Shown one piece after another: positions 2,746 to 29,008 of a DNA stretch of 34,657 bases. Positions within the stretch are counted from its first letter, which is position 1. Each line of letters starts with the position of its first letter. The notes under the pieces were generated by a model. The model searched no databases and was not told where the DNA came from. It saw nothing but the letters and a program-made list of their open reading frames with translations. Origin of the DNA: Candidatus Fraserbacteria bacterium (GTDB lineage Bacteria > Bipolaricaulota > Bipolaricaulia > RBG-16-55-9). The position numbers and the translations under genes were made by a program. Location of the stretch: contig JBBIPG010000016.1 in the NCBI GenBank assembly GCA_037442925.1, forward strand, positions 1 through 34,657, written 5' to 3'.

Positions 2746-4506
2746 ATGGCATACGATCCCACACAACTAAAGGACTGGCAGATCGCGGAACTCGCTGAAC
2801 CCAAAATGCCTACCCCAGAAGAATGGCGAGACCGGCTGGGACTGAAAAAGGACGAGATCATCCCCTATGGCAGGATCTGCAAGCTCGACTTCATGAGGAT
2901 CATGGAGCGCCTGAAGAGCAAGCGCGATGGCAAGTATATTGAAGTGACCGCCATCACCCCGACGCCCTTAGGAGAGGGAAAGACAACGACGACTCTGGGC
3001 GTCCTTGAAGGCATGGGCAAGCGCGGCATCCACGTCGGCGGCTGCATCCGCCAACCCTCAGGGGGCCCCAGTATGAACATCAAAGGCACCGCGGCTGGCG
3101 GAGGCAACGCGCTGCTCATCCCCATGACGGAGTTCTCGCTGGGCCTCACGGGTGACATCAATGACATCATGAACGCGCACAATCTCGCCATGGTGGCTCT
3201 GACGTCTAGATTGCAACACGAGCGCAATTATGATGACACACAGCTCACGAAGATTGGGCTGCGCCGCTTGGATATTGATCCGACTCGTGTGCAGATGGGC
3301 TGGATCATGGATTTCTGCGCTCAGGCGCTACGCCACATCATCATCGGTATCGGCGACCGCATGGATGGCTACATGATGCAATCGAGGTTTGATATTGCGG
3401 TCAGCTCGGAACTGATGGCCATCCTGGCGATTGCGCGAGATCTGGCCGATTTGCGCGATCGAATTGGGCAGATCACAGTGGCCTTCGATAAGAAGGGCCA
3501 TCCCGTTACCACTCACGATCTGGAAGTGGACGGAGCCATGACGGCCTGGATGCGCAACACTATCAATCCCACCCTCTGCTGTTCGATAGAGTACCAGCCT
3601 CTCATGGTCCATGCTGGGCCCTTCGCCAATATTGCCGTGGGCCAATCCTCAATCATCGGGGATCGCTTGGGGCTCAAACTCTTTGACTATCACGTGACGG
3701 AGAGCGGCTTTGGTGCGGATATCGGCTTTGAGAAGTTCTGGAACGTGAAGTGCCGTCTGAGTGGTCTTAAGCCCAATGTCTCGGTGCTCGTGGCAACCAT
3801 TAGGGCGCTCAAGATGCACGGCGGAGGCCCTAAAGTCGTTCCGGGTCGCCCACTGCCTGACGAGTATATAAAAGAGAACGTGAAATTGTTGGAACAAGGC
3901 ATGCCCAATCTGCTCCATCATATCAACATCATCAAGGCGTCTGGCATTGTGCCCGTGGTCTGCATCAATGCCTTCCACACGGATACTCGAAACGAGATTG
4001 CTGCCGTGAAGAACGCGGCGGAGAAGGCAGGTGCTCGCTGTGCCGTCTCCGAGCACTGGCTCAAGGGAGGCGAGGGTGCCCTGGAGCTGGTCGATGCGAT
4101 CGTGGATGCTGCTGAGGAGGAGAACAAGTTCCAGTGCCTATATCCGCTGGAAATGAAACTCCGTCAGAGGGTCGAGAAGATTGCCAAGGTGGTCTATGGC
4201 GCGGATGGGGCCAGCTGGAGCCCTGAGGCAGAAGAGAAAGCCAAGAAGCTCGAGGCCGATCCCAAGTACAGTGACTATCAGACGATGATGGTCAAGACGC
4301 ATCTCTCGCTCAGTCACAACCCGGACTGGAAGGGAGTTCCCAAGGGATGGGTGCTGCCCGTCCGCGATCTGCTCATCTTCTCCGGCGCGAAGTTCTTGTG
4401 CCCCATGACCGGTACGATCAGCTTGATGCCAGGCACGGCCTCGGATCCGGCTTTCCGAAGGATCGATGTGGACGTGAAGACGGGCAAGGTGAGGGGGCTC
4501 TTTTAA
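2746..4506 (+). CDS. fhs: Formate--tetrahydrofolate ligase
   Basis: [77 protein letters not shown]. Confidence 0.97.
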
Positions 4507-4517
4507 AGGGGACTGCT

Positions 4518-5468
4518 ATGGAGATGCGAAAAGTGGCAAAGGCGATGGAGAAGATCGGCATTCCCGGTCGGGATGCCTATGAGCTGCCTACCAGTGAGAA
4601 GCGCTTCCCGGATGGGGCGCAGTATCGCATGGAGGTCTCTGGAGTTGAGCGCTTGAGTGTGCTGGAGGCCCTTTTGGATGAGAGTGATAAGCGCAAGATG
4701 CCCATCCATAGGCTCATCTCAGTTGTGATGGGTGCGACCCTTCTCGACAAGAAGGAATTGAAAGCCTTCGCAAAGTTGGCCGCGGAGTCGAAATCGGAAG
4801 TGATCTTGACGCCGGGACCACGCTCTGCATGGGATACTGGCAGACAACTCGTCACGCCGGAAGGCGGACTATCGGGCTTGAGATTCCGGGGCTCGGATCA
4901 ACTGCGCTATGTGATCTCGGATATTATGCGAGCGATTGAACTCGGCTTTCGCGGGTTCTTAGTGATCGACGAGGGATTACTCTGGCTTCTCAACGAGCTG
5001 AAGCAGAAGGGCGACATTCCCAAAGACGTGACGTTCAAGGTCTCGATCTACGCGGGACACGCCAACGCTGCCGGAGGCAGGGTCTTGCAGATGCTGGGGG
5101 CAGGAACCTTCAACCCGGTAGCGGATCTCTCGCTGCCGCAGCTGGCCTCGATTCGACAAGCCATCGACATCCCAATGGACCTGCACATTGTGCTCACAGA
5201 ATCCTTCGGCGGGTATCTCAGATTCTATGACGGCCCAGAGATGGCGCGGGTCTGTGCGCCGTGCTATTTCAAGATCGAGCATGGACCAGCTTGCGCAGCC
5301 GGACCCGGCGCGCTCTACAAGCCCTGGACGAGCCCACAGCTCTTAGCAGATATGGCCCGTGAGAAAGTCAAGTATGCGCAAACCATCCATGAGCTCATCC
5401 ATGAGAACTATCCGGAAGCGGTGATGTCGAAACTGGGGGCCAAGGATCTGGCCATACCCAAACCGTAG
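4518..5468 (+). CDS. Conserved TIM-barrel-like protein, probably of the group annotated 'U32 family peptidase'; function unknown
   Basis: Start at ATG 4518 after AAAGGGGA, 11 nt past fhs. Motifs 'LPTSEKRFPDGAQYRME', 'GPRSAWDTG', 'GFRGFLVIDEGLL', 'GAGTFNP..DLSL.QLASIR'. Family call is from memory. Confidence 0.6.
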   Translation: MEMRKVAKAMEKIGIPGRDAYELPTSEKRFPDGAQYRMEVSGVERLSVLEALLDESDKRKMPIHRLISVVMGATLLDKKELKAFAKLAAESKSEVILTPGPRSAWDTGRQLVTPEGGLSGLRFRGSDQLRYVISDIMRAIELGFRGFLVIDEGLLWLLNELKQKGDIPKDVTFKVSIYAGHANAAGGRVLQMLGAGTFNPVADLSLPQLASIRQAIDIPMDLHIVLTESFGGYLRFYDGPEMARVCAPCYFKIEHGPACAAGPGALYKPWTSPQLLADMAREKVKYAQTIHELIHENYPEAVMSKLGAKDLAIPKP

Positions 5469-17584: not shown

Positions 17585-18484
17585 ATGGCAACAGCGAAAG
17601 TCGAGCCAGGAGAGAAGCCGCACACCAACGAAGCGCGTCGGCGCCTATTCACCGATTTTGCCCGTGGGGTCTTCGCGACCCTGGTTGCCGCAGGCTTGCG
17701 TACTGTGGAGGGGGAGCAAGCCTCAGCCCGGGAAGAAGGCCAACCTCCCCAGACCCTCGACATGTTGCCTGAGCCACACGAGCATGAGGATGTGCTGCTA
17801 CGTATGCAGCGCGAACTCCACAAAGCCTTACGCAAACCCGTGGAGCAGCGTCGCTGGGTGATGGTGATTGACTTACGCAAGTGTATCGGCTGCCATGCCT
17901 GCACCATCGCCTGCATTGCCGAGAATAAACTGCCTCCCGGCGTCGTGTACCGGCCTGTGATCACAGAAGAGATTGGGGAATACCCCAACGTCTCGATGCG
18001 CTTCATCCCGCGCCCGTGCATGCAGTGTGACAATCCTCCGTGTGTGCCCGTCTGTCCGGTAAATGCCACATACAAGCGCCCCGACGGTGTTGTGGAGATC
18101 GACTATAACGCCTGTATCGGATGCCGTTATTGCATCACAGCCTGCCCCTACAACGCGCGCACTTTCGATTTCGGCGAGAACTATACCGACAAGGCTCCCG
18201 AGAAGGCTCCCTACGAAGAGGCGCCCAATTTCGAGTATGGCCGCCGCTGGCGGCGCGAGCGGGAGCAGTCCCCAATCGGCAACGCCCGGAAGTGTCATTT
18301 CTGTCTACACCGCTTAGAAGCCGGGCAACTGCCCGCCTGCACGACCGGCTGCGTCGGCCGCGCGACCTTCTTCGGCGATGCCAATGATCCCGACAGTCTG
18401 GTTTCGGAACTGATCAGTAACCCTAATGTCATGAGACTGAAAGAAGAGTTGGGAACGAAGCCCAAGGTCTACTATCTCGTCTAG
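17585..18484 (+). CDS. ttrB: 4Fe-4S electron-transfer subunit of a DMSO-reductase-family complex (TtrB/NrfC-like)
   Basis: Twin-Arg RRRLF; four Cys clusters [37 protein letters not shown]...PAC..GC. Confidence 0.8.
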
Positions 18485-18492
18485 GAGGCACC

Positions 18493-19752
18493 ATGAGTGT
18501 CTGGGCTCAAAGAACAATGATGCAAACGATTGGCCCCAAGGTCTTGGGCGTTTTGTGGGTGGGCGCTCTGGTTGTAGGAGGCTGGGCCGTGATCCAGCGA
18601 CTGCTGCTCGGACATGAATTGGCTAACTACGGCAGCTACATCGTCTGGGGGCTATGGGTGTCCGCGTACATCTACTTCATTGGGTTGTCGGCGGGAGCCT
18701 TCTTGCTCTCCTCGCTGATTTACGTTTTCGCTTCCAAAGAACTGGAAAAGATCGGGAAACTCTCGCTCTTGGTGGCCGTAGTGACGCTGGTGATGGCCCT
18801 GCTATCGATCTGGTTCGATCTGGGGCACATGGAGCGCTTCTATTATATCTTCACCCGTCCCAACTTCCGGTCGATGATGGCTTGGATGGTCTGGTTGTAC
18901 ACGGCGTATTTCTTATTGCTGTTGGCAGAGATGTGGTTTGCTATGCGGGCAGATCTCGCCCGCTGGAGCGAGACGTCTGGATGGCGCCGTATGGTTGCCA
19001 ATCTGCTCCTCTTGGGACGAAGACTCACAGCGCGCTCGGTAGAGTTGGACCGCAACGCGCTGCGCGTGCTGGGCAGTATAGGGATACCTCTGGCGATTGC
19101 CTTCCACGGAGGAGTGGGGGCCTTGTTTGGCACCGTGCTGGCCCGGCCCTACTGGCATACGCCGCTCTATCCCATCTTGTTCTTGACGGGAGCACTCGTG
19201 AGCGGTGGAGCGCTCATGACCGCAACGGTGGCCTTCTTCTGGCCCAAGCACGACCCCAAGTATGCGCCGATGGTCCAGCGCCTGGGCAACATTGTTCTGA
19301 TGATCCTGCTCTTCGATCTGCTCTTGGAGTGGGCGGAGTTTTCCATCCCGATGTGGTACGGCGTCGGACCGGAGTACGAGCTTCTGCAGAAAGTGCTATT
19401 CGGGCCGTACTGGTGGGTCTTTTGGGTATTGCACATGCTCTTAGGCAGTCTCATCCCGATCTTCTTGCTCGTCACTCAATCGAGGAAACCCTTCTGGGTG
19501 GGCGTGGCCGGAGTGCTGATCACGACGACGTTCATGGCGGTGCGCTTAAATATCGTTGTCCCGGGTCTAATTGAGCCTCAGCTGCGCGGTCTGGAAGAGG
19601 CGTATTACAATCCCAGGCTCCTCTTTGAGTACGTGCCAAGCTTATTCGAGTGGCAGGTGATCCTCTTCATTCTGGCACTGGGATTTGGATTGTTCTATCT
19701 GGGTAATCGGTTGCTGCCTTTGATGGAGCGGGAGGAAGGAACTTCCAGATGA
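18493..19752 (+). CDS. NrfD/PsrC-family membrane anchor (TtrC position)
   Basis: WGLWVSAYIYFIGLSAG, DLGHMERF, SMMAWM, RPYW, about 10 hydrophobic segments; SD AGGAGG. Confidence 0.88.
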   Translation: MSVWAQRTMMQTIGPKVLGVLWVGALVVGGWAVIQRLLLGHELANYGSYIVWGLWVSAYIYFIGLSAGAFLLSSLIYVFASKELEKIGKLSLLVAVVTLVMALLSIWFDLGHMERFYYIFTRPNFRSMMAWMVWLYTAYFLLLLAEMWFAMRADLARWSETSGWRRMVANLLLLGRRLTARSVELDRNALRVLGSIGIPLAIAFHGGVGALFGTVLARPYWHTPLYPILFLTGALVSGGALMTATVAFFWPKHDPKYAPMVQRLGNIVLMILLFDLLLEWAEFSIPMWYGVGPEYELLQKVLFGPYWWVFWVLHMLLGSLIPIFLLVTQSRKPFWVGVAGVLITTTFMAVRLNIVVPGLIEPQLRGLEEAYYNPRLLFEYVPSLFEWQVILFILALGFGLFYLGNRLLPLMEREEGTSR

Positions 19753-22700
19753 GCGAGACTAAGAAGAAGCCGTCGAGTCGCCTCACACGGCGTGACGTAT
19801 TGAAAACAGCGGCCCTGTTGGGCGGTGCTGGACTCTTGGCAAGCCAGACGCCCCGGCTCTTCGAGGCGCTCGCCCGCGCCGAGTCGGATTACTTGACTCC
19901 TGTGGAAGAGTACTCCTTAGCCCAGCCAGAGAACCAGCTCTACTCGGTCTGTCTTCAGTGCAACACCGGCTGTGGAATCAAAGTGAAGATGCTCGACGGC
20001 GTCGCTGTGAAAATCGATGGAAATCCACTCAGCCCGTGGACCCTGCACCCCCATCTGCCTTACAAGACCTCGCCCTTCGAGATCGCCACAGTGGAAGGCG
20101 CGCTCTGCCCGAAAGGACAAGCAGGGCTCCAGACCGTTTACGATCCCTACCGCCTTCGCAAGGTCTTGAAGCGCAAGCCGGGAAGCAAGCGCGGTCAAAA
20201 CCACTGGGTCACGATCCCTTTCGAGCAGGCGATCACGGAGATCGTCGATGGCGGAGATCACTTTGGTGAGGGGCATGTTTCGGGTCTGCGCGAGCTATGG
20301 GCAGTGCGCGACCCTAATGTGGCCAAGCAGATGAGCGAAGACATCCAAAAGATCTGGTCTGCTCATGAGCGTAGCGAGAAAGAGAAACTCGTGGCCGAGT
20401 TCAAAGAGAAGTACCGAGAACAGCTGGATAAGCTCATTGACCCGGAGCACCCGGATCTGGGACCCAAGAACAATCAGCTGGTCTTTTTGTGGGGGCGGGT
20501 CAAGGGGGGCCGAGAGCACCTCATCCGTCGTTTCGTGCAAGATGCCTTCGGCTCGGTCAACGCCCACGGGCACACCACAGTCTGCCAGGGTTCGCTCTAC
20601 TTCACCGGCAAAGCCATGAGTGAGCAATACAAAGAAGGCCATTGGACCGGCGGCCAAAAGTTCTACTGGCAGGCCGACACAGAAAACTCGGAGTTTCTGA
20701 TCTTCGTAGGTGCATCGCCCTTTGAGGCCAACTACGGCCCTCCGGTGCGCGCCCCGCATCTGACCCACAATATGGTCGAGCATGGGCTGAAGATCGCGGT
20801 TGTCGACCCTCGACTGAGCAAGACGGCAGCCAAAGCCTGGAAATGGCTTCCCATCAGGCCCGGCACGGAAGCAGCTTTAGCTCTAGCGATGATCCGCTGG
20901 GTCATCGAGAAGGGGCGTTATGACAAGAGGTACTTGGAGAACGCCAACAAGGCCGCGGCCATGCAAGACGGCGAGCCTACGTGGTGTAATGCCAGCTGGT
21001 TAATCAAGATCGAAAACGACCGCCCGTCGACGTTTTTGCGGGCAGCCGAGATCGGCCTGAGTGAGGAAGATCGCTTTGTCGTCTGGCACGACGGGCAATT
21101 CTCAACTTGTGACCCCTACGATGAGACGACGCCCGTCGAGGGCGATCTGTTCGTCGATACGCAACTCAACGGCATCCGCGTCAAGAGCGGCCTTCAGGTT
21201 CTCTATGATGCTGCTCTGGAGCACACACTCGAAGAGTGGGCACAGATCTGCGGTCTCCCTCTGCGCGATATCGTCGAGCTGGCGCATGAATTCACTTCCC
21301 ACGGCAAGCGCGCGGCGGCAGACATTCACAGAGGCGTCAGCCAGCACACCAACGGCTTCTACAACGTCTTCGCTTGGTATGCACTCAATCTCTTGATCGG
21401 CAACTACGACTGGGCTGGCGGCCTGATCAAGAAGACCGAATATGACGCCATCGGAGACAAAGAGGGCAAGCCCTTCCCCATCAAGAAACTCCATCCAGGC
21501 AAGACTGTGCCCTTCGGGGTCTCAAACATCCGTCACGGGAACAAGTACGAAGAGACGACGCTCTTTGCGGGCTACCCGGCTAAGCGCCCCTGGTTCCCGC
21601 TGAGCAGCGATATCTATCAAGAGGTCATTCCCTCGATCGGCGATGCGTATCCGTATCCGGTCAAAGCCCTCTTTCTCTACATGGGCACACCGGGCTACAG
21701 CCTGCCCGCGGGTCAGACCAATATTGACATTCTCTCAGATCCCAAGAAGATCCCTCTCATCATCGCCAGCGACATCATCGTAGGCGAGACCAGCCTCTAT
21801 GCCGACTACATCTTCCCGGACTTGACTTATCTTGAGCGCTGGGAGTTCCATGGCTCGCACCCGAACATCGCTCCTAAAGTCCAACCCATCCGCCAGCCTG
21901 TCATTGCACCCATTCCAGAGACGGTCACAGTCTTTGGAGAAGAGATGCCGCTCTCACTGGAAGCGATGATCTTAGGAATCGCGGAAAAGCTAGGCTTGCC
22001 GGGCTTCGGACCCGGCGGATTGGGTGAAGCCGGTGACCTCAACCGGCCCGAAGACTTCTATCTCAAGATGGTTGCGAACGTCGCCTTTGGGGACAAGCCG
22101 GACGGCTCAGATGCAGTCCCCGACGCCGATGATCGTGAGGTCGAGCTCTTCCTGAAGGCAAGACGTCATCTGCCGACCAGTGTCTTCGAGCCCACAAAAT
22201 GGCAGCGTACCGTCAGCGAGTCGTTCTGGCGCAAGGTCGTCTATGTACTCAATCGGGGTGGGCGCTTCCAAGACCACGAGAAAGCGTACACACAAGACGG
22301 GAAAGTGACAAATCCCTACGGCACGCTCATCAATCTCTATCAGGAGAAGACGGCCACGACTAAGAACAGCATGACTGGAAGACTCTTTGCGGGCTATCCG
22401 CTCTATTTGCCAGCACCGGCGGATGTACTGGGGCGCCCCATTGAGGATGAAAAAGCGGGCTTCGATTTGAATTTGATCACCTACCGTGTGATCCATCAGA
22501 CGAAGTCACGGACGATCTCGAACTACTGGCTCTTGGGTATTGAGCCCGAGAATGCGGTCTTATTGAACCGACGCGACGCGGATCGCTTGGGGTTCAACGA
22601 GGGTGACACGGTCAAGATCATCTCTTCCTCCAATCCCGAGGGTGTGTGGGATCTTAAGAACGGCCGGAAGGTCCCCATGATCGGAAGGCTCAAGCTTGTG

Positions 22701-22937
22701 CAGGGTCTACGGCCGGGCGTGGTTGCCTTCAGCTTGGGCTATGGTCACTGGGCCTACGGCTCCGAAGACATGGTGATCGATGGCCGGGTGATCCGGCGAG
22801 ACGAGCGCCGCGCTCGGGGCATCCATGCCAACGCGGCCATGCGCATAGATCCCGTCTTAAAGAATACCTGCCTGCAAGATGTCACAGGCGGCAGCGTCAG
22901 CTTCTACGACAGCCGCGTCAAACTCGTCAAGATCTGA
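19749..22937 (+). CDS. ttrA: TAT-exported Mo/W-bisPGD oxidoreductase catalytic subunit, tetrathionate-reductase-like clade (TtrA/SrdA/Ttr-type arsenate reductase); substrate uncertain
   Basis: TRRDVLK TAT signal; FS0 CLQCNTGC...CPKG; GHTTVCQ putative Mo-ligand Cys; PDLTYLERW; C-terminal GYGHW, RARG..NAAM..DP; 1062 aa; B-C-A gene order. Confidence 0.8.
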   Translation: MSETKKKPSSRLTRRDVLKTAALLGGAGLLASQTPRLFEALARAESDYLTPVEEYSLAQPENQLYSVCLQCNTGCGIKVKMLDGVAVKIDGNPLSPWTLHPHLPYKTSPFEIATVEGALCPKGQAGLQTVYDPYRLRKVLKRKPGSKRGQNHWVTIPFEQAITEIVDGGDHFGEGHVSGLRELWAVRDPNVAKQMSEDIQKIWSAHERSEKEKLVAEFKEKYREQLDKLIDPEHPDLGPKNNQLVFLWGRVKGGREHLIRRFVQDAFGSVNAHGHTTVCQGSLYFTGKAMSEQYKEGHWTGGQKFYWQADTENSEFLIFVGASPFEANYGPPVRAPHLTHNMVEHGLKIAVVDPRLSKTAAKAWKWLPIRPGTEAALALAMIRWVIEKGRYDKRYLENANKAAAMQDGEPTWCNASWLIKIENDRPSTFLRAAEIGLSEEDRFVVWHDGQFSTCDPYDETTPVEGDLFVDTQLNGIRVKSGLQVLYDAALEHTLEEWAQICGLPLRDIVELAHEFTSHGKRAAADIHRGVSQHTNGFYNVFAWYALNLLIGNYDWAGGLIKKTEYDAIGDKEGKPFPIKKLHPGKTVPFGVSNIRHGNKYEETTLFAGYPAKRPWFPLSSDIYQEVIPSIGDAYPYPVKALFLYMGTPGYSLPAGQTNIDILSDPKKIPLIIASDIIVGETSLYADYIFPDLTYLERWEFHGSHPNIAPKVQPIRQPVIAPIPETVTVFGEEMPLSLEAMILGIAEKLGLPGFGPGGLGEAGDLNRPEDFYLKMVANVAFGDKPDGSDAVPDADDREVELFLKARRHLPTSVFEPTKWQRTVSESFWRKVVYVLNRGGRFQDHEKAYTQDGKVTNPYGTLINLYQEKTATTKNSMTGRLFAGYPLYLPAPADVLGRPIEDEKAGFDLNLITYRVIHQTKSRTISNYWLLGIEPENAVLLNRRDADRLGFNEGDTVKIISSSNPEGVWDLKNGRKVPMIGRLKLVQGLRPGVVAFSLGYGHWAYGSEDMVIDGRVIRRDERRARGIHANAAMRIDPVLKNTCLQDVTGGSVSFYDSRVKLVKI

Positions 22938-22942
22938 GCGAT

Positions 22943-23383
22943 TCAACTTGTCCGTGGGCAATGTATCACTAAGATGGGCTTTTGCGTCAGGTGTATCACA
23001 GCGTCGGTGACGGAGCCAAGCAACATCAACTCCAACCCGGTGCGGCCGCGCGTGCCCATGATAATGAGATCGTGCCCTTCGGCGGCCTTGACGATAGCCT
23101 GAATGGGGTTCTCCCCCTCGGCCAGTGAGGTCTCTGCTGTAACTTCAGCTTGTTGCGCAAGTTCGTGGGCCTTCTGCAGAGCATCTCTCGCGACCTTGCG
23201 GAGATCACCGAGGATCTCCTGCCCATATCTTGCCGCGATACTTCCGTAGCTGGCGATGGGGTTTTCCACCACGTAGAGGAAGGTCACCTCAGCTCCTGTC
23301 AGTTTGGCCAATTCCAGTCCTTGCTGAATGGCATGGACGCTGCAACTGCTCCCGTCGGTGGGCATCAAGATGCGCTTGTACAC
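22943..23383 (-). CDS. Universal stress protein (single domain)
   Basis: YKRILMPTDGS...DLIIMGTRGRTG..LLGSVTD.V. Start set at GTG 23383 after GAGGTG. Confidence 0.9.
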   Translation of the reverse strand: MYKRILMPTDGSSCSVHAIQQGLELAKLTGAEVTFLYVVENPIASYGSIAARYGQEILGDLRKVARDALQKAHELAQQAEVTAETSLAEGENPIQAIVKAAEGHDLIIMGTRGRTGLELMLLGSVTDAVIHLTQKPILVIHCPRTS

Positions 23384-23393
23384 GGTTGTCACC

Positions 23394-23837
23394 TCACTTT
23401 CTATGCCTTCCAGAATCAAACTCGGTCAGCAGCGCCAAGACTTTTTGCTCGATTTCGTCTCGTACCCGTCGGTAGATTTCCAGAGGCTGATCGAAGGGAT
23501 CTTCGATTCCCCAGTCGCGGGCGTCGCCACGGAAGGTCGTCGGACAGATGTTCTTGTCTGAGCAGCCCATTGTGATGACGTAGTCATAGTCTAGCAGCTC
23601 CTGTGGCGTGATCCCTTTGGAGCGATGTCCTGAGATATCAATGCCCTTCTCGGCCATGACCGTGATCGCTTGGGGATGGACGTAGCCCGCGGGCCGCGTG
23701 CCTGCGCTGGCAGCCCTGATGGTTAGGCCTCGTTCGCGCGCCTGATGATTAAAGAAGCCTTCGGCCATCTGGCTGCGACAGGAGTTGCCCACGCAGACGA
23801 AGATGACTCGCGACGGCTTGGGAGTCTGTTTACCCAT
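23394..23837 (-). CDS. arsC: Arsenate reductase, thioredoxin-coupled LMW-PTP type
   Basis: P-loop CVGNSCRSQMAEG, SAGT, GIDIS, ITMGC...CP, DWGIEDP; located in an ars operon. Confidence 0.9.
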   Translation of the reverse strand: MGKQTPKPSRVIFVCVGNSCRSQMAEGFFNHQARERGLTIRAASAGTRPAGYVHPQAITVMAEKGIDISGHRSKGITPQELLDYDYVITMGCSDKNICPTTFRGDARDWGIEDPFDQPLEIYRRVRDEIEQKVLALLTEFDSGRHRK

Positions 23838-24570
23838 CTACCGAATCTCCTTCCCTTAGAGAACTATGCCCCTCGTATTCTTTCTCCTCTCTTCGCTTGG
23901 CTTCTACTCTTTCTCGAATGCGTGCCATCATCTCCCGCAGTCGAGCGGCTTGTTCTTTCTGCTCTGAGGTTTTGGGCTCTTTTTGCGGCTGGGTGACCCG
24001 CCAGGTGAGCTTGCCCGAGAGCGGTTCTCCGGGATAGGCACCGAGATCATAGACCGTATAACCCTTAAATTCTGTAGGCTCCTCCTGGTAGCACGACCAA
24101 ACGGCCCTTCGGATCAGTTCAGGGTCGCCCTCATTCAAAAGATCAAGGATCGTGATCTGCTTGGTGAACCGCTCGATGAACTCCAAAGGAAGGTTGAAGA
24201 GATAAGGGGTGGGGGCATCGGTGCCGATGATCCTCTTGTTCTGATCGACGCCATTCTTCGCTAGGGCTTTCAAGGCATCTCCACTGGAGTGGCCTGGGGA
24301 TTCGGGACCACAGAGCACGATATAGCGAATATTCGGGTTGGCGACGATGTTGCAGACGATCTTCTCGATCCCGATGTTCTCCGTCTGCAGTGTCCCGGAG
24401 AGAGCAGCGCCGCTCTCCACGCCCACTCGGACCAGATGCTCAATATCACGCGGGATCTTCTCTTGGTCGTGGATCAGAATGACCACGACAGCGACGGGAG
24501 AGTAGTCATTTCCACGAAGATACCGCCCATCTTCCGGAGGATAGCCAGAGACCAGCGGCACTTTGAGCAT
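23830..24570 (-). CDS. MtrA-like (tetrahydromethanopterin S-methyltransferase subunit A domain) putative corrinoid protein, soluble
   Basis: YPP..G.Y..GN..SPVAV, GAA.SG.L.TENIGIEKIVCNIVANPNIRYIVLCG.ES.GH.SG..L.AL..NGVD...RIIG...P.P.L.NL...IERF..Q match the MtrA core; charged, non-membrane C-terminus; SD GGAGGAGG. Confidence 0.85.
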   Translation of the reverse strand: MLKVPLVSGYPPEDGRYLRGNDYSPVAVVVILIHDQEKIPRDIEHLVRVGVESGAALSGTLQTENIGIEKIVCNIVANPNIRYIVLCGPESPGHSSGDALKALAKNGVDQNKRIIGTDAPTPYLFNLPLEFIERFTKQITILDLLNEGDPELIRRAVWSCYQEEPTEFKGYTVYDLGAYPGEPLSGKLTWRVTQPQKEPKTSEQKEQAARLREMMARIRERVEAKRREEKEYEGHSSLREGDSVDG

Positions 24571-24573
24571 GGT

Positions 24574-24654
24574 CTACCCCTCCTCCAGTGAACCGAAGCA
24601 GTCATCGAGCACGTCGGGATAAGCGAGTCCGTAGCACGCGATCTTACGGGTCAT
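24574..24654 (-). CDS. Putative 26-aa small ORF MTRKIACYGLAYPDVLDDCFGSLEEG (or gene remnant)
   Basis: SD GAGGAG 10 nt upstream; fills most of the usp-mtrA gap; too short for the supplied ORF track. Confidence 0.4.
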   Translation of the reverse strand: MTRKIACYGLAYPDVLDDCFGSLEEG

Positions 24655-24668
24655 GTGAGGATCGCTCC

Positions 24669-25583
24669 TCATGAGGCGCGAGCGACGCAACACGGCTGGA
24701 CTAAGAGCACCGACGTCGGCGAACGCTCGGTCACCTTGCGCGAGACGCTCCCGCTGAGCATCTCCTCCAGGAAGCCCTTGCCGTGGGCGGCCATGACAAT
24801 GAGTGTGGCGTCGACCTCGTGAGCGGCTTTGATGATCTCGGCGGCGGGGATGCCCACGTGCAGGTGGGTATCGACCTGGAATCCAGCCATCTGCAAGGAC
24901 TTCTTCACCTCGTCCAAGCGATGCGTGTCATTGGTCCGAAACTCCTCGTATTTCTCCGCTGGGATCATCTTCATGACGCGTTCCTCCATCACGTGGACTA
25001 CAGCGACCTCACACACACCGGTCTCCTTGAGGCCTTTGACGTAGCTCAGCGCTTCGTGGGCACAGTCGGACCAATCCGTGGGATAAACGATCCTGTCGAA
25101 CAGATTAGTGCAGACTCGTTCACACAGATCTTTGTCATCTTCTCCCTCCAGAAAGTGATATTTCGCCACTAGGATCGGGCATGGTGCCCGCCCGATGAGC
25201 CGGTGCGTGGTGGGATCGAGATAGCCCTCGTCCCGGCGATGGCGGCGCTGCGAACCACCAATGATCAAAGAGACGCGCTCTTCAGCGGCCACGCGTAGGA
25301 TCTGCTGATACGGCAAGCCCGTCTCGATGCGTACCCGAACTTCCAGCCCTTCAGTCCTGATGGGCTCCTCCCATTCAGCGAAGCGCAGTTTGGCTAGCTC
25401 GCGCAACTGCTCGGCCTCTTGATCGCGATAGCCTTCTAACAAGTTGTGCTGCAAGCGGCGCTCGTCCACCACATGTAGCAGCACGACCTCGCGGAGCCCT
25501 ACGGCCTTGAGCTGTAGCACACATTGGAGCAGATCGTAGGAGAACTCGTCGAAGTCAGTCGGGTATAGGATTTTACGGTACAT
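24669..25583 (-). CDS. Universal stress protein (tandem two-domain)
   Basis: MYRKILYPTDF... and second domain RIVYPTDWS...LIVMAAHGKG..E.LSGSVS..V. Confidence 0.9.
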   Translation of the reverse strand: MYRKILYPTDFDEFSYDLLQCVLQLKAVGLREVVLLHVVDERRLQHNLLEGYRDQEAEQLRELAKLRFAEWEEPIRTEGLEVRVRIETGLPYQQILRVAAEERVSLIIGGSQRRHRRDEGYLDPTTHRLIGRAPCPILVAKYHFLEGEDDKDLCERVCTNLFDRIVYPTDWSDCAHEALSYVKGLKETGVCEVAVVHVMEERVMKMIPAEKYEEFRTNDTHRLDEVKKSLQMAGFQVDTHLHVGIPAAEIIKAAHEVDATLIVMAAHGKGFLEEMLSGSVSRKVTERSPTSVLLVQPCCVARAS

Positions 25584-26763
25584 CTGAGCCTCCCTTTCCG
25601 GGATTGTGGGGGGTCGCCTCTCTCGTGGCCTTCATCCCATGGCAACCCGATACCATCTCAGGAGCAGTGGGGTCAGCCAGAGCTGGTTGCGCAGTCAACG
25701 CCGCAGTCGCCCGCTCCCCAAAGAGCTTCAAGCTCGTGGCTCGCGCAAACCAGACGAGGGCCAGCATGACTGGCACCTCAATCAAGGGTCCCACCACGGT
25801 CGCCAAGGCCACCGTCGGATTGAATGCCGTAATGGCAATCGCTATGGCGATCTCAAAGTCACGGCCAGTGGAGTTGAACGCCACGGCCACGGCGTCCTTG
25901 TAGGTCAGCCCCAACTTCCAGCCGGTCAGGTAGACGAAGCTGAAGATCGTCCAGAAGAAGATGGTCATGGGCACGGCCAGTTGCACGATGATGAGTGGCT
26001 GGGCCACGATGAGGTCGCCCTTGAGTGCGAACATGACGACCAGCGTGAAGAGTAAGCCAATAATAGAGAGTGAATCAAGCGCCGTCTTAAACCGAGCGAA
26101 GCCTTCCTCACCCCAGTGTCTAACGCCGAATCGCCGCGTGAGAAAGCCAGCGACCAGTGGCACACCCAAGTACAAGAGTACGCTCTCGCCCACAAGCCAG
26201 ACGTCAAAGGACACGCTCCCCAAAAGCCACTTGGCGTAGACCGGGATGAGCAGCATCTGCATGATCGAGTTGATGGCCACCAGCACGATGGCCAGGGCAT
26301 TGTTCCCAAACGAGAGGAACGTGAAGACGATCACCATGGCAATACACGGAGCTAATCCGTAGAGCACGAGGCCAGTATGGAAGTCGCTGCCCGGCTGCAG
26401 AAAGAGATTGGCAAGCAGCAGCATCCAGAAGGGCGCAATCGCAAAGTTGAAGAAGAGCACGATCAGCAATTGCTTAGGTGAGCGCACAGCCTTCCCCAGC
26501 TCTTCAAACTTGATGTTGGTCATTGCTGGGTAGATCATCAAGAAGAGTCCCAGCACAACTCCCAGCGCCAGGGTATTCGGCAAGCTGAACTGGTACGCCC
26601 CGGAGACGATGTGCTTGAGGGCGTCGATGGGCGGGGTGAGCTCGAAGTTTGAGATACCGTATGCCTTGCCAATCCAGATACCCAAAGCCATGCTGATTAT
26701 CACAAAGACGGGAAGCAGACGAAAATCTTGCAGTTTTTCCAAGACCGTTCGGACATGAACCAC
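25573..26763 (-). CDS. acr3: Arsenite efflux transporter Acr3
   Basis: LMIYPAM, GLAPCIAMV (conserved Cys), NSIMQ, RDFEIAIAIA, VGPLIEVPVM; GTG start after AAAGGAGG. Confidence 0.93.
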   Translation of the reverse strand: MVHVRTVLEKLQDFRLLPVFVIISMALGIWIGKAYGISNFELTPPIDALKHIVSGAYQFSLPNTLALGVVLGLFLMIYPAMTNIKFEELGKAVRSPKQLLIVLFFNFAIAPFWMLLLANLFLQPGSDFHTGLVLYGLAPCIAMVIVFTFLSFGNNALAIVLVAINSIMQMLLIPVYAKWLLGSVSFDVWLVGESVLLYLGVPLVAGFLTRRFGVRHWGEEGFARFKTALDSLSIIGLLFTLVVMFALKGDLIVAQPLIIVQLAVPMTIFFWTIFSFVYLTGWKLGLTYKDAVAVAFNSTGRDFEIAIAIAITAFNPTVALATVVGPLIEVPVMLALVWFARATSLKLFGERATAALTAQPALADPTAPEMVSGCHGMKATREATPHNPGKGGSDVP

Positions 26764-26775
26764 GTGCAGCCTCCT

Positions 26776-27171
26776 TTAGAGTTTTCGGTAACCGATCACG
26801 CACAGACCCTCTCTGCGACGGGTCAAGCGCGCACGCAATAGTTTTGCGTCTCTTTGAAAAACGGGATCGTCCAGCTTGCCACGGAGTGCCGATAGGATGG
26901 CACGCTGCCACGGTGCAAGCTCCTCTGCCGGAGTGTAGTAGACCCACGTGCCTCGTTGTTGTGAGTCAAGCCATCCTGCGCTCTTGAGCTGCTGCAGATG
27001 GCGCGAGACTTGATACTGTGGCAGCCGCAGGGCATCGACCAGTTCACAGACACAGATGCCCCTTTCTGAAGCGACATTCAGAATGGCCTTGAGTAAGCGT
27101 AGCCGTGTGTCATCGGCCAGCGCCTGAAAACAATGCGCTAAGTCTTCTAGAGAAAGCCTTGTATGTATCAA
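26776..27171 (-). CDS. arsR: ArsR/SmtB repressor with CVC metalloid site
   Basis: FQALADDTRLRLL, ICVCEL, QVSRHL..LK.AG, RGTWVYY. Start uncertain: TTG 27171 chosen because the promoter lies inside the longer 179-aa ORF. Confidence 0.85.
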   Translation of the reverse strand: MIHTRLSLEDLAHCFQALADDTRLRLLKAILNVASERGICVCELVDALRLPQYQVSRHLQQLKSAGWLDSQQRGTWVYYTPAEELAPWQRAILSALRGKLDDPVFQRDAKLLRARLTRRREGLCVIGYRKL

Positions 27172-27183
27172 AGCGCATATAAG
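27158..27183. promoter_or_regulatory. Putative ArsR operator
   Basis: Imperfect inverted repeat CTTGTATG-N10-CATATAAG overlapping the -10 box and the start region. Confidence 0.6.
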
Positions 27184-27210
27184 TATATAAACAGAGGGCC
27201 CCGGCGTCAA
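27182..27210 (-). promoter_or_regulatory. sigma70-type promoter of the arsR-acr3 operon
   Basis: Minus strand TTGACG-N17-TATACT. Confidence 0.75.
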
Positions 27211-27342: not shown

Positions 27343-27576
27343 TCACCCTTCCAGCAGTTGCTTGATCTCTTCAACGCTGGGCACGTGGCCGCTCAGCTTC
27401 ACCACACCGTCGACAGCCACAGCGGGCGTGAACATCACCTGGCGTCGCGCGATCTCCATCGCATCGTAGACGTGTGCGACCTCCGCTTGTAAGCCTAGTT
27501 CTTGCACAGCTTTCTGCACGCGGCGCTCGGTCTCGAAGCACCTGGGACAGCCACTGCCCAGAATCTCGATCTTCAT
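27343..27576 (-). CDS. Small thioredoxin-like redox-active disulfide protein (MTH895/TM0996 type)
   Basis: MKIEILGSGCPRC...VMFTPAVAVDG.VK.SG.VPS.EEIK; alternative start at 27582. Confidence 0.88.
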   Translation of the reverse strand: MKIEILGSGCPRCFETERRVQKAVQELGLQAEVAHVYDAMEIARRQVMFTPAVAVDGVVKLSGHVPSVEEIKQLLEG

Positions 27577-27595
27577 GATCATCTCTCCCTCGCTT

Positions 27596-28663
27596 TCAGA
27601 AGATGAAGTTGCCTGCGAACCAACCGACCAGTGTTCCCAAGACGATGATTGTGATCACGTACGCAGTCGCTTTGTTCACGCCGAATACCCGCGCAACCGC
27701 AAGCCAATTGGGCAGACTCAGACCTGGCCCCGTCAGCAAGAGCGCGAGTGCTGGTCCCGGCCCCATCCCCAGCTTCATCAGTGTGTCTACAAAGGGAGCC
27801 TCGGTCATCGTGGCAAAGTAGCTGACGCCTCCAATCAGCGTTGCCAAGAACGATGCGCCCAAGCCCGATCCGCCTAGAGCCGTGCGTACCCACTCCTCCG
27901 GCAAGAGTTTCCCAATAATGCCGACGACGAAAACACCTGCGAGCAGGAGCGGGAAGATAAGCCTCACGAACCACCATGTCTCGGCAAACCAGCGCTTCAG
28001 CTCTTCTCTCGGCTTGACCCGCAGTGCATAGCCGAAGACAGCAATGGTTGCCACAACCCAAACCACGATCTTCGCCCAGTAGGGTCCACTCTGTACCAGA
28101 TAGTTGGGCGCGAGAAGCGAGATGACGAGCAGTCCAAGCAGAATCAGATCTTCTTGCCCCATCAGCTTGGTGGGTGCGATCGTATGGCCGGGATTGCTGG
28201 GGACAGGCGTGGGTTGTAATCTCGCTTGCTCTTCTTGGCGAAAGACGAGCGTCATGACCCAACCGACAATGAAAGCCATCAGAAGCGCCGCTATGATGCG
28301 CACGGTCACCATCGTCACGCCCAAGATCGCTCCTGTATACGTGAGCGCGAGAATATTCGCTGCCGGAGCTACCCAGAGAACGATGAACGCGGCACCGATG
28401 GCGGCGCCGGAGTAATAAAGCCCGCTGCTCACGGGGATGACCGTGCACGAGCACGCTGCCACGAAGAAACTCCCCCCGGCAGCCAACGCGAACGCTTTCA
28501 GTCTCTGAGCCGCTGCCCCCAAGTAATAGATGATCGTCTCCTTGGAGACGAAGGTGACCATTGCGCCCGCCAATAAGAAAGCAGGAATCAAGCAGGTCAA
28601 GACGTGGAGGGCGATATAGTCTTGCAGGGCCAGCAGTCCTGCTTTGACCCATTCCCAGAGCAT
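27596..28663 (-). CDS. DUF318/ArsP-like permease
   Basis: H.LTCLIPAF.LAG, ACSCTVIP, PAAN, YFATMTE.P, GMGPGPALALLL.GP.LSLP; flanked by arsR and a thioredoxin-like gene. Confidence 0.85.
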   Translation of the reverse strand: MLWEWVKAGLLALQDYIALHVLTCLIPAFLLAGAMVTFVSKETIIYYLGAAAQRLKAFALAAGGSFFVAACSCTVIPVSSGLYYSGAAIGAAFIVLWVAPAANILALTYTGAILGVTMVTVRIIAALLMAFIVGWVMTLVFRQEEQARLQPTPVPSNPGHTIAPTKLMGQEDLILLGLLVISLLAPNYLVQSGPYWAKIVVWVVATIAVFGYALRVKPREELKRWFAETWWFVRLIFPLLLAGVFVVGIIGKLLPEEWVRTALGGSGLGASFLATLIGGVSYFATMTEAPFVDTLMKLGMGPGPALALLLTGPGLSLPNWLAVARVFGVNKATAYVITIIVLGTLVGWFAGNFIF

Positions 28664-28690
28664 GGGATGTTCACCTCCCTTGTGAGAGCT

Positions 28691-29008
28691 TCATCGCCCC
28701 CTGAGCACTCGCACAGCTTCTCGCGCTTGGTCCCGAATCATCCCTTGGATCAGCTCCCGGATGGCTTGGATTCGATCATCGCTCAGCTCATAGATCACCC
28801 GAACGCCTTCCCTGTGAGATTTCACGAGACCTGCTTTCTTTAAGATGATCAAATGGCGCGATATGGTCGATTGATCCACATCGAAAGCAGGCTCAATCTC
28901 GCACGTGCAGCGAGGCCCTTCTATCAGGAAATCGAGCAGCTGAAGTCGGATCGGATGGCCGAGGGCCTGGTAGACCTCCGACTCGGTTTCATGCTGTGCA
29001 AAGCTCAT
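28691..29008 (-). CDS. Second ArsR/SmtB-family regulator
   Basis: QALGHPIRLQLL, RCTCEI, QSTISRHL..LK.AGLV. Start set at ATG 29008 after AAAGGGG. Confidence 0.88.
   Translation of the reverse strand: MSFAQHETESEVYQALGHPIRLQLLDFLIEGPRCTCEIEPAFDVDQSTISRHLIILKKAGLVKSHREGVRVIYELSDDRIQAIRELIQGMIRDQAREAVRVLRGR

Follow-up and report, generated by a model that had tools for sequence, protein, structure and literature searches.

We analyzed a stretch of 34,657 nucleotides (nt) from a Candidatus Fraserbacteria bacterium of the phylum Bipolaricaulota (contig JBBIPG010000016.1 of assembly GCA_037442925.1), referred to here as the window, and focused on a gene for an MtrA-like protein that lies within an arsenic resistance (ars) operon. 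An earlier sequence-only reading of the window had described the co-oriented gene order arsR-acr3-usp-mtrA-like-arsC-usp, and these six genes are confirmed at that place on the minus strand, with the overlaps of 11 nt between acr3 and the first universal stress protein (Usp) gene and of 8 nt between the mtrA-like gene and arsC following from the gene coordinates. As described below, the MtrA-like protein is a real, widespread, and apparently undescribed member of ars operons in anaerobes that carry the Wood-Ljungdahl pathway, and its fold is a known one. The evidence from genomes makes a strong case; the chemistry of the protein is predicted. The features of the operon are as follows:

27182..27210, minus strand: sigma-70-like promoter, TTGACG-17-TATACT
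27161..27180, minus strand: predicted ArsR operator, ATATGC-N8-GCATAT with 2 mismatches, directly after the −10 box
26776..27171 (start approximate), minus strand: ArsR repressor (NF033788, 71 bits, cutoff 55), with a Cys-Val-Cys motif and a C-terminal Cys
25573..26763, minus strand: Acr3-family arsenite efflux permease (PF01758; TIGR00832, 258 bits, below the cutoff of 283)
24669..25583, minus strand: two-domain Usp
23830..24570, minus strand: MtrA-like protein, 246 amino acids (PF04208, residues 7 to 169)
23394..23837, minus strand: predicted arsenate reductase, ArsC type of the LMWP family (PF01451), with a CX5R loop and two distal Cys
22943..23383, minus strand: single-domain Usp, last gene of the operon, its start GTG 23383 picked by the ribosome-binding site
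22870..22889, minus strand: terminator-like hairpin, ∼54 nt beyond the last usp

Predicted control and extent of the operon

The mtrA-like gene is co-oriented and coupled with arsR, acr3, and arsC behind a predicted ArsR-type operator. Given that 35 palindromes of equal quality occur in the 2.07-Mb genome, the assignment of this operator is based on its conserved position and not on its rarity: a palindrome is found at the same position after the −10 box and before the orthologous arsR in loci L001 (0 mismatches) and L002 (1 mismatch), and in L037 and L112 one lies at arsR or just ahead of it. L001 and L002 retain ArsR, the operator, and the downstream genes, but their pump is ArsP instead of Acr3. 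The window ArsR belongs to the same family as those of L001, L002, and L167, and its start is probably the TTG at 27171, which would leave the message nearly leaderless. Among ArsR, Acr3, and ArsC, only ArsR passes its NCBIfam cutoff; the other two are family members by Pfam, with ArsC scoring 95 bits for TIGR02689 and 89 bits for TIGR02691, below both cutoffs. The promoter-like sites (3 found versus 2.5 ± 1.6 expected) are weak on their own, as are the terminator-like hairpins (7 found versus 4.2 ± 2.2 expected). Directly upstream of the mtrA-like gene itself, no conserved operator was found in 34 loci, mostly ars-free, with spacers of up to 14 nt allowed. In three stand-alone copies (L135, L138, and L150), a 9-bp inverted repeat, TGCAATATT ... 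AATATTGCA, precedes the start, with one mismatch in L150, and this repeat is possibly the operator of a further regulator.

The sequence-only reading had also counted a 32-codon frame between usp and the mtrA-like gene (24574..24672/24693, minus strand) as a member of the operon. We found no homologue of this frame in the fetched loci or in the genome, and it is probably spacer. The six genes stand as an operon, but the arsenic island reaches further upstream than had been described, with an arsR2-arsP-thioredoxin module at 27343 to 29008:

28691..29008, minus strand: second ArsR/SmtB repressor (arsR2), heading the upstream module
27596..28663, minus strand: ArsP_1 (DUF318) permease, of the family of the methylarsenite exporter ArsP (PF03773, 224 bits)
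27343..27582, minus strand: small thioredoxin of the MTH895/ArsE family (TIGR00412, 95 bits, cutoff 62)

No arsM lies in the window, as the sequence-only reading had noted, but the genome carries an arsR-arsN2-arsM operon on contig C10 (L168, 6166 to 7888, minus strand). On the other side of the operon, a molybdoenzyme operon (17585 to 22937, plus strand) converges on the ars genes at a distance of 5 nt. Its TtrA-like protein of 1,062 amino acids scores 490 bits for TtrA and 130 bits for ArrA, both below cutoff, and is accompanied by 4Fe-4S and NrfD subunits. L001 and L002 show the same arrangement, with the molybdoenzyme operon directly bordering the mtrA-like gene; it may encode a respiratory oxyanion reductase. 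A frame of ∼320 to 370 amino acids between fhs and panB (4347 to 5468, plus strand) has no Pfam or NCBIfam match.

Fold and predicted cobamide site of the MtrA-like protein

The protein scores 144 bits for PF04208, the Pfam MtrA profile (cutoff 25), and 195 bits for NF002126 (cutoff 161), and no domain other than PF04208 matches it. An AlphaFold model built on a 60-row alignment (pLDDT 86.9) superimposes on the cobalamin-bound MtrA 5laa_B with a Z score of 25.2 and a root mean square deviation of 1.4 over 159 residues, while the next match reaches a Z score of 6.9, so both the profile search and the structure prediction place the protein in the MtrA family. The contacts of cobalamin in MtrA (Y18, T53, E54, N55, G57, V61, N64, and H84; PMC4915002) align to Y17, T63, E64, N65, G67, I71, N74, and H94 of the window protein. 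Among 145 family members, H94 is conserved in 144, E64 in 139, C73 in 143, and C160 in 144. Judging from the model and these residues, the window protein very probably binds a cobamide.

Methanogen MtrA from the complex MtrA-H and the cytoplasmic homologue of this subunit (PDB 5LAA, 5L8X, 8Q3V, and 9QTQ; PMC4915002) share with the window protein the fold (43% identity), the cobalt-ligand His, the His-Glu link, and the pocket for the nucleotide tail. The window protein differs from them in a helical insertion of ∼11 residues (residues 41 to 52), in the invariant Cys73, which by alignment adjoins the nucleotide-tail pocket, and in a charged C-terminal helix. Its loop reads E-S-P-G-H, and that of solved MtrA reads E-V-Q-G-H. 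The sequence-only reading was therefore right that the MtrA core is kept, in the form of His94 and the pocket residues, but the E-S-x-G-H motif that it had taken as part of this core is the family's own version of the loop.

The charged C terminus that had been proposed in place of the membrane anchor agrees with both measures applied: the helix at residues 202 to 236 is 51% charged, and the peak 19-residue hydropathy past residue 170 is −0.19, indicating that there is no membrane anchor. Past the same residue, none of 120 homologues exceeds a hydropathy of 1.6, whereas five of seven canonical-like proteins exceed 2.3. The window protein is the sole PF04208 match in its genome, and MtrH was found in none of five carrier genomes, including its own, 94%-complete one. 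It also remains well short of TIGR01111, the equivalog model for subunit A of the Mtr complex (132 bits versus a cutoff of 249), its host is a bacterium, and its neighbors are ars genes and not those of an mtrEDCBAFGH operon. Because it has no membrane anchor, no MtrH, and no second PF04208 copy beside it, the window protein is an MtrA-domain protein but not an Mtr subunit. What stands of the soluble corrinoid protein that had been proposed for this operon is its solubility, its MtrA fold, and an intact, though predicted, cobamide site.

Association with ars genes and the Wood-Ljungdahl pathway

In order to place the protein in a family, we used a protein search with 3,943 matches, presumably including canonical MtrA, the best 120 of which (query aside) are 65 to 81% identical to the window protein. 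From 341 GTDB loci and 449 metagenome loci, we took the best 80 of each (160 together) and assigned their neighbors to classes by means of profiles derived from the window and the GTDB loci; representatives were checked with Pfam and NCBIfam. In a quick IQ-TREE phylogeny, in which the joins of long-branch outgroups are unreliable, the window protein falls into a main clade of 64 GTDB loci with an SH-aLRT support of 98. Defining a core ars gene as a separate acr3, arsP, arsC, or arsM gene, we found one near the family member in 44 of 80 GTDB loci (41 of the 64 in the main clade) and in 59 of 80 metagenome loci, and the ars-linked members span eleven phylum-level labels. By comparison, ∼1.6% of the host genome is within the same reach of a core ars gene. 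An independent draw, based on a PF04208 search of 401 genomes each from Chloroflexota and Planctomycetota with 40 of 47 matches fetched (leaving out two center genomes and five weak matches), gave a core ars gene at 7 of 11 family members versus 0 of 29 members of other PF04208 clades. The four ars-free cases among the 11 are an ArsC fusion, two probable members of a Cys-rich subclade, and one 2.4-kb contig. The homologues are therefore enriched near ars genes far above background, as the sequence-only reading had anticipated.

ArsC is the commonest immediate neighbor (32 of 160 loci, mostly in one Acidobacteria-like lineage), and L015 encodes an MtrA-ArsC fusion. A true arsM gene adjoins the mtrA-like gene in 13 of 160 loci, exporters of the ArsP family occur in 22 of the 64 loci of the main clade and lie directly upstream of it in 16 of 160, and a small thioredoxin is present in 51 of 160. 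Several candidate members of these neighborhoods were rejected: ArsM calls at L031, L088, L159, and on the minus strand of L032 are generic methyltransferases that failed NCBIfam and were dropped from the counts, P0274 is not an ArsM fusion by NCBIfam, and the apparent ArsC-MtrA fusion P0164 looks frameshifted and was not counted. No main-family member was found on PLSDB plasmids, and matches in the ESM Atlas comprised MtrA-named clusters only. The distribution of the gene is patchy. In the host's own phylum, 3 of 184 genomes carry the main clade and a fourth carries another MtrA clade, and in its own family an mtrA-like gene was found in none of eight other genomes.

Two further observations concern the same clusters. 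A fusion of thioredoxin, a NosL-like domain in some cases, and MerB occurs in 10 of 160 loci (L011, 9147 to 10658; L019, 2536 to 3942; L022, 4788 to 6203; L033, 7396 to 8817; and six more), and the four with a genome label are from Planctomycetota; it is a separate candidate for oxygen-free cleavage of C-As bonds. Genes for GcvH or lipoate ligase, DGC-domain proteins, and OsmC also recur (L005, L092, L043, L128, and L074), possibly as spare lipoyl targets for arsenite.

To relate the family to metabolism, we considered 51 carrier genomes, namely, those of 50 of the 64 main-clade loci (the 14 left out being mostly short or redundant contigs) and the host's own. PF03599 (AcsC/AcsD) is present in 48 of the 51, and full-length AcsC (E value of ≤1e-60) is present in 45. 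At the same threshold and without the center genomes, the background is 64 of 400 in Planctomycetota, 2 of 150 in Acidobacteriota, and 24 of 150 in Spirochaetota, versus 9 of 11, 4 of 4, and 5 of 6 carriers, respectively; in the host's own phylum it is 42 of 101. The independent draw from Planctomycetota gave AcsC in 4 of 5 carriers versus 60 of 395 others (Fisher P value of 0.003, uncorrected for kinship), and all four ars-linked Chloroflexota carriers have AcsC. A second, DUF4346-type MtrA clade does not show this tie (2 of 5 genomes; in Planctomycetota, 0 of 4, with one genome in both counts). Within the host's own family, AcsC was found in 0 of 4 other genomes, and only in the window genome was either AcsC or an mtrA-like gene found. 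Among acs-bearing Planctomycetota, 5 of 65 carry the mtrA-like gene. The host's acs cluster is complete, with acsB, acsC, RACo, acsD, acsE-like, and cooS genes together and a methylenetetrahydrofolate reductase (MTHFR) in the genome; it contains no mtrA-like copy. The host AcsE is encoded at L249, 11738 to 12541 (contig C2 of genome G000). Although the sequence-only reading had proposed a link to the methyl-tetrahydrofolate (THF) pool, which the genome-level co-occurrence with acs genes supports, it had based this link on local fhs and metV genes, and these lie ∼19 kb away and are absent among the recurring neighbors. The Wood-Ljungdahl co-occurrence of the ars-linked MtrA-like family is new here. 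The host acsB (L249, 3098 to 6697; contig C2 of genome G000) carries an intein with LAGLIDADG domains, and the acsB of L264 is similarly long.

We also compared distances within the family with those of other proteins of the same genomes. In 20 carrier genomes, family distances follow those of AcsC, AcsD, AcsE, and AcsV (between-phylum Spearman coefficients of 0.43 to 0.64), as opposed to RecA (−0.44), RplB (−0.19), and Acr3 (−0.01; 12 genomes). Collapsed to phyla, the four Acs proteins give coefficients of 0.39 to 0.46 (P values of 0.017 to 0.059), compared with −0.34 for RecA, −0.20 for RplB, and 0.08 for the neighboring Acr3. Basal relatives are fused to an AcsC-type FeS domain or a ferredoxin, or they adjoin the C-terminal domain of acetyl coenzyme A synthase (ACS) or carbon monoxide dehydrogenase (CODH). 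A history shared by the mtrA-like family and the Acs proteins is suggestive only. In four Acidobacteriota carriers, the acs clusters (L253 to L256) are 56 to 77% identical to the host's (L249), closer than RecA and RplB suggest, which hints at a transfer of the Wood-Ljungdahl pathway between the two lineages.

Possible functions and relation to known systems

Several inferences of decreasing strength can be drawn from these genomes. It is likely that the protein is induced by arsenic and has an arsenic-related role, and there is a reasonably good case that it works together with a partner from the acs proteins, among which AcsE or methyl-CoFeSP would be the donor and AcsV/RACo the reactivator. 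Whether the family forms a dedicated, arsenic-regulated link between the methyl branch of the Wood-Ljungdahl pathway and arsenic, as a cobamide enzyme that would make or break As-methyl bonds without S-adenosylmethionine (SAM) or oxygen and is perhaps the missing anaerobic methylarsenic demethylase, appears evenly balanced. Our preferred reading, which we put forward tentatively, is that arsenic would induce a cobamide carrier, which would be charged by the methyl branch of the Wood-Ljungdahl pathway and would methylate trivalent arsenic without SAM. ArsC would make As(III), AcsE or methyl-CoFeSP would pass a methyl group to the cobamide of the MtrA-like protein, which AcsV/RACo would reactivate, and the resulting methyl-Co(III) protein would transfer this group to As(III) or MAs(III), leading toward exportable or volatile methylarsines, with no oxygen involved, while Acr3 and ArsP would export the remaining arsenicals. 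SAM is a possible alternative donor, as in HgcAB. The direction of methyl transfer is the weakest step of this reading. We favor transfer toward arsenic because the group that MtrA hands on is a methyl cation and its acceptor a soft nucleophile (PMC4915002), because volatile arsenic species reportedly arise through methylation by methylcobalamin in a side reaction of MtaA (PMC13262295), because ArsC, which makes As(III), is fused to or adjoins the protein, and because arsM adjoins the gene in some loci, where a co-induced demethylase would cycle futilely and waste SAM.

A number of observations weigh against this proposal. No arsenic-binding thiol site is evident in the protein, and CobS was not found in the 94%-complete host genome, so the cobamide would have to be scavenged. 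In 23 of the 64 loci of the main clade, and in 11 of the 40 with 8 kb or more of DNA, the fetched sequence contains no core ars gene; the neighbors there include a CDF pump, nitroreductases, rubrerythrin or superoxide reductase, DsrE, and mixed stress, redox, and transport genes. A His-on cobamide carrier requires an activator as well as a methyl donor or acceptor, and neither a methyltransferase nor an activator is a regular neighbor in the fetched loci. The acs genes are possible suppliers of both; their co-occurrence could, however, mirror a strictly anaerobic, cobamide-using lifestyle and not a partnership. Carriers within one phylum are related, so that the counts overstate independence, and the modest signal in the distances, which comes from 7 to 9 phyla, loses significance without Bipolaricaulota and Acidobacteriota (coefficients of 0.19 to 0.37, P values of ≥0.10). 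ArsM is present in 34 of 51 carriers, where a second route could be redundant. Conversely, 14 of 51 carriers have no ArsM match, including the single-chromosome genomes G184 and G185, which rules out a role as accessory to ArsM only. Given both the 34 carriers with ArsM and the two single-chromosome carriers in which it was not found, the mtrA-like protein is neither a replacement for ArsM nor merely its accessory.

The dependence on acs genes would be explained equally well if methyl groups moved the other way, with a Co(I) form stripping them from MAs(III) or dimethylated DMAs(III), or from their As(V) forms, and passing them to THF or ACS, so that the pathway would act as a sink and regenerate Co(I). 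The frequency of ArsP-family exporters, the presence of a MerB-like lyase domain in the same clusters (nine such proteins confirmed), and the two single-chromosome carriers in which ArsM was not found fit such an anaerobic demethylase, as do reports that a methylotrophic methanogen demethylates DMAs(III) anaerobically by a mechanism called unclear (PMC10579292) and the hypothesis that non-methanogen MtrAH feeds methyl groups into the Wood-Ljungdahl pathway (PMC9635834). We nevertheless regard this reading as rather unlikely: arsM adjoins the gene in 13 loci, ArsC is fused or adjacent, the neighbors include no methyltransferase that would activate a substrate, and the reported spontaneous direction is from methylcobalamin to arsenic, so that the reverse would presumably need the pull of a sink. 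The co-occurrence and the mirrored distances could also mean that the protein guards the Wood-Ljungdahl pathway itself, in which CoFeSP or ACS would be the target of arsenicals. Induced by arsenic, it would serve as a decoy, a spare carrier of methyl groups, a store of cobamide, or a partner in repair, with no net arsenic product that matters. A scavenged cobamide and the ars-free loci beside redox-stress genes would fit this role, and GcvH, a lipoyl protein that trivalent arsenic would bind, occurs in 6 of the same 160 loci as a possible parallel. This, too, seems unlikely, since the gene sits in ars operons and not in the host's acs cluster, and since the ArsC fusion and a very high surface conservation look more like catalysis with a partner than like storage.

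If the protein instead worked as a low-potential reductant, RACo or ferredoxin would restore its Co(I) form, and this form, together with ArsC and the small thioredoxin, would reduce As(V) or methyl-As(V) or give rise to volatile hydrides. Going by the title of a 2012 report by Wuerfel, cob(I)alamin reportedly generates hydrides, and the ArsC fusion or adjacency, the ferredoxin and FeS fusions, and the thioredoxin in about a third of the loci (51 of 160) point the same way. Yet ArsC has a cysteine relay of its own and the His-Glu lower-ligand pair, which serves methyl-Co(III) in MtrA, is conserved, making reduction an improbable function. We consider it similarly improbable that the protein serves against soft metals and metalloids in general (Sb, Se, Te, Hg, and Cd) or against stress and is often but not specifically found in ars operons. 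About one-third of the loci are ars-free, some with CDF or P-type pumps, the second MtrA-domain clade lies behind ArsR/SmtB regulators with Cd/Zn-type ATPases, and hgcAB, for which Hg is the known substrate, is a precedent for corrinoid genes located in ars operons (PMC7438021; 10.1101/2022.10.17.512643); against this, acr3, arsP, arsC, and arsM dominate the neighborhoods, and no core gene of a mer operon was identified among the recurring neighbors. Finally, a family history that tracks Acs and not Acr3, together with the existence of stand-alone copies, would suit a housekeeping C1 protein of Wood-Ljungdahl organisms that is in arsenic islands by chance. Such a passenger is very improbable, considering that the gene recurs in differently built ars operons under 11 phylum-level labels, that it forms overlaps or fusions with ars genes, and that its distribution is patchy among genomes with acs genes as well.

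Soluble MtrA homologues of bacteria and non-methanogens have been noted before without a function (PMC4915002; PMC11291895; PMC9635834). Those of Asgard archaea, Bathyarchaeia, and bacteria resemble the window family in lying outside methanogenesis with a proposed link to the Wood-Ljungdahl pathway (PMC11291895; PMC9635834), but in the window family none of the 5 carrier genomes tested supplies an MtrH partner. The passages considered from both papers make no arsenic link, and the word "arsenic" occurs 0 times in PMC11291895. MtrA has also been predicted as donor for MesA (PMC7857596). The closest functional parallel we considered is HgcA/HgcB, which, like the window protein if its prediction holds, is a corrinoid system repurposed for a metal and associated with ArsR and ars genes in anaerobes (PMC11588087; 10.1101/2022.10.17.512643; PMC7438021). 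HgcA, however, sits in the membrane, holds its cobalt in a Cys-on state, pairs with a fixed ferredoxin, and draws on SAM as the donor (PMC11588087), whereas the window protein has an MtrA fold with a His ligand, matches only PF04208, and has neither a membrane helix nor a ferredoxin in its operon; in the family, a ferredoxin is nearby in only 9 of 160 loci. The available text on hgcAB as a corrinoid gene under ArsR in ars neighborhoods (10.1101/2022.10.17.512643; PMC7438021) mentions mtrA in neither case. ArsM (NF008823) and the C-As lyase ArsI share with the window protein the proposed As-methyl chemistry and the operon context but no sequence or fold relation, the former using SAM and the latter being a dioxygenase (PMC13262295; PMC10579292). 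The side reaction of MtaA and methylcobalamin in methanogens (Thomas 2011, via the review PMC13262295) has a methyl-cobamide donor and volatile arsenic species in common with our preferred reading, but it is incidental and not regulated by arsenic, whereas the window gene lies behind a predicted ArsR operator. A 2026 preprint on anaerobic arsenic demethylation tracks genes of the mtaB/mttB type and, in its available part, does not mention mtrA. Among the matches listed in a literature search whose coverage excludes most subscription journals and supplements, no publication joins the Mtr-type MtrA family to ars operons or arsenic.

The question matters because methylated arsenic that is made or destroyed in anoxic soils and sediments sets the toxicity of arsenic in rice and groundwater. 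The mechanism of anaerobic demethylation has been described as unclear (PMC10579292; 10.64898/2026.08.27.747368), and the demethylase reading, if true, would answer this open question (PMC10579292). As the protein is small and soluble, the structure of a relative has been solved, the cofactor site is defined, and candidate partners can be named (AcsE, CoFeSP, and RACo), the question is directly testable in vitro. An arsenic-related function, if true, would also explain what is done by one class of orphan MtrA homologues, which carry the label of a methanogenesis subunit in databases, and such homologues should not be taken as remnants of methanogenesis.

Other MtrA-domain proteins appeared alongside the main clade. 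In a sister subclade (L066, L068, L072, L073, L076, L078, L079, L080, and P0125), the MtrA domain is joined by a Cys-rich helical domain, either fused or in tandem small genes, with the pattern CxxxC ... CQKTxGxCxIGxGC, no Pfam match, and sometimes a TusA; none of eight such loci lies near ars genes. The second clade combines a Cys-rich N terminus with MtrA and DUF4346, is NF002128-like, and adjoins ArsR/SmtB regulators (L167, 5880 to 9054, in genome G072; L211, L221, L240, L243, L244, and L207; and plasmid L312, 1435 to 5819). In G072 it heads an arsR-acr3-arsC cluster behind the same type of operator as in the window, and a heavy-metal P-type ATPase precedes it in L211 and on a plasmid from Planococcus. 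MtrA-fold proteins may have been recruited twice to metal(loid) resistance. Lastly, fusions of an MtrA domain to thymidylate synthase were found in 16 of 64 representatives scanned, some with the His of E-S-x-G-H, and MtrA domains are also fused to dCTP deaminase and DUF4346, with one adjoining dCTP deaminase and thymidine kinase (P0155, P0158, P0161, P0163, P0333, and P0334; P0242 and P0335 to P0339; L234). These arrangements could represent a cobamide-dependent route to thymidylate.

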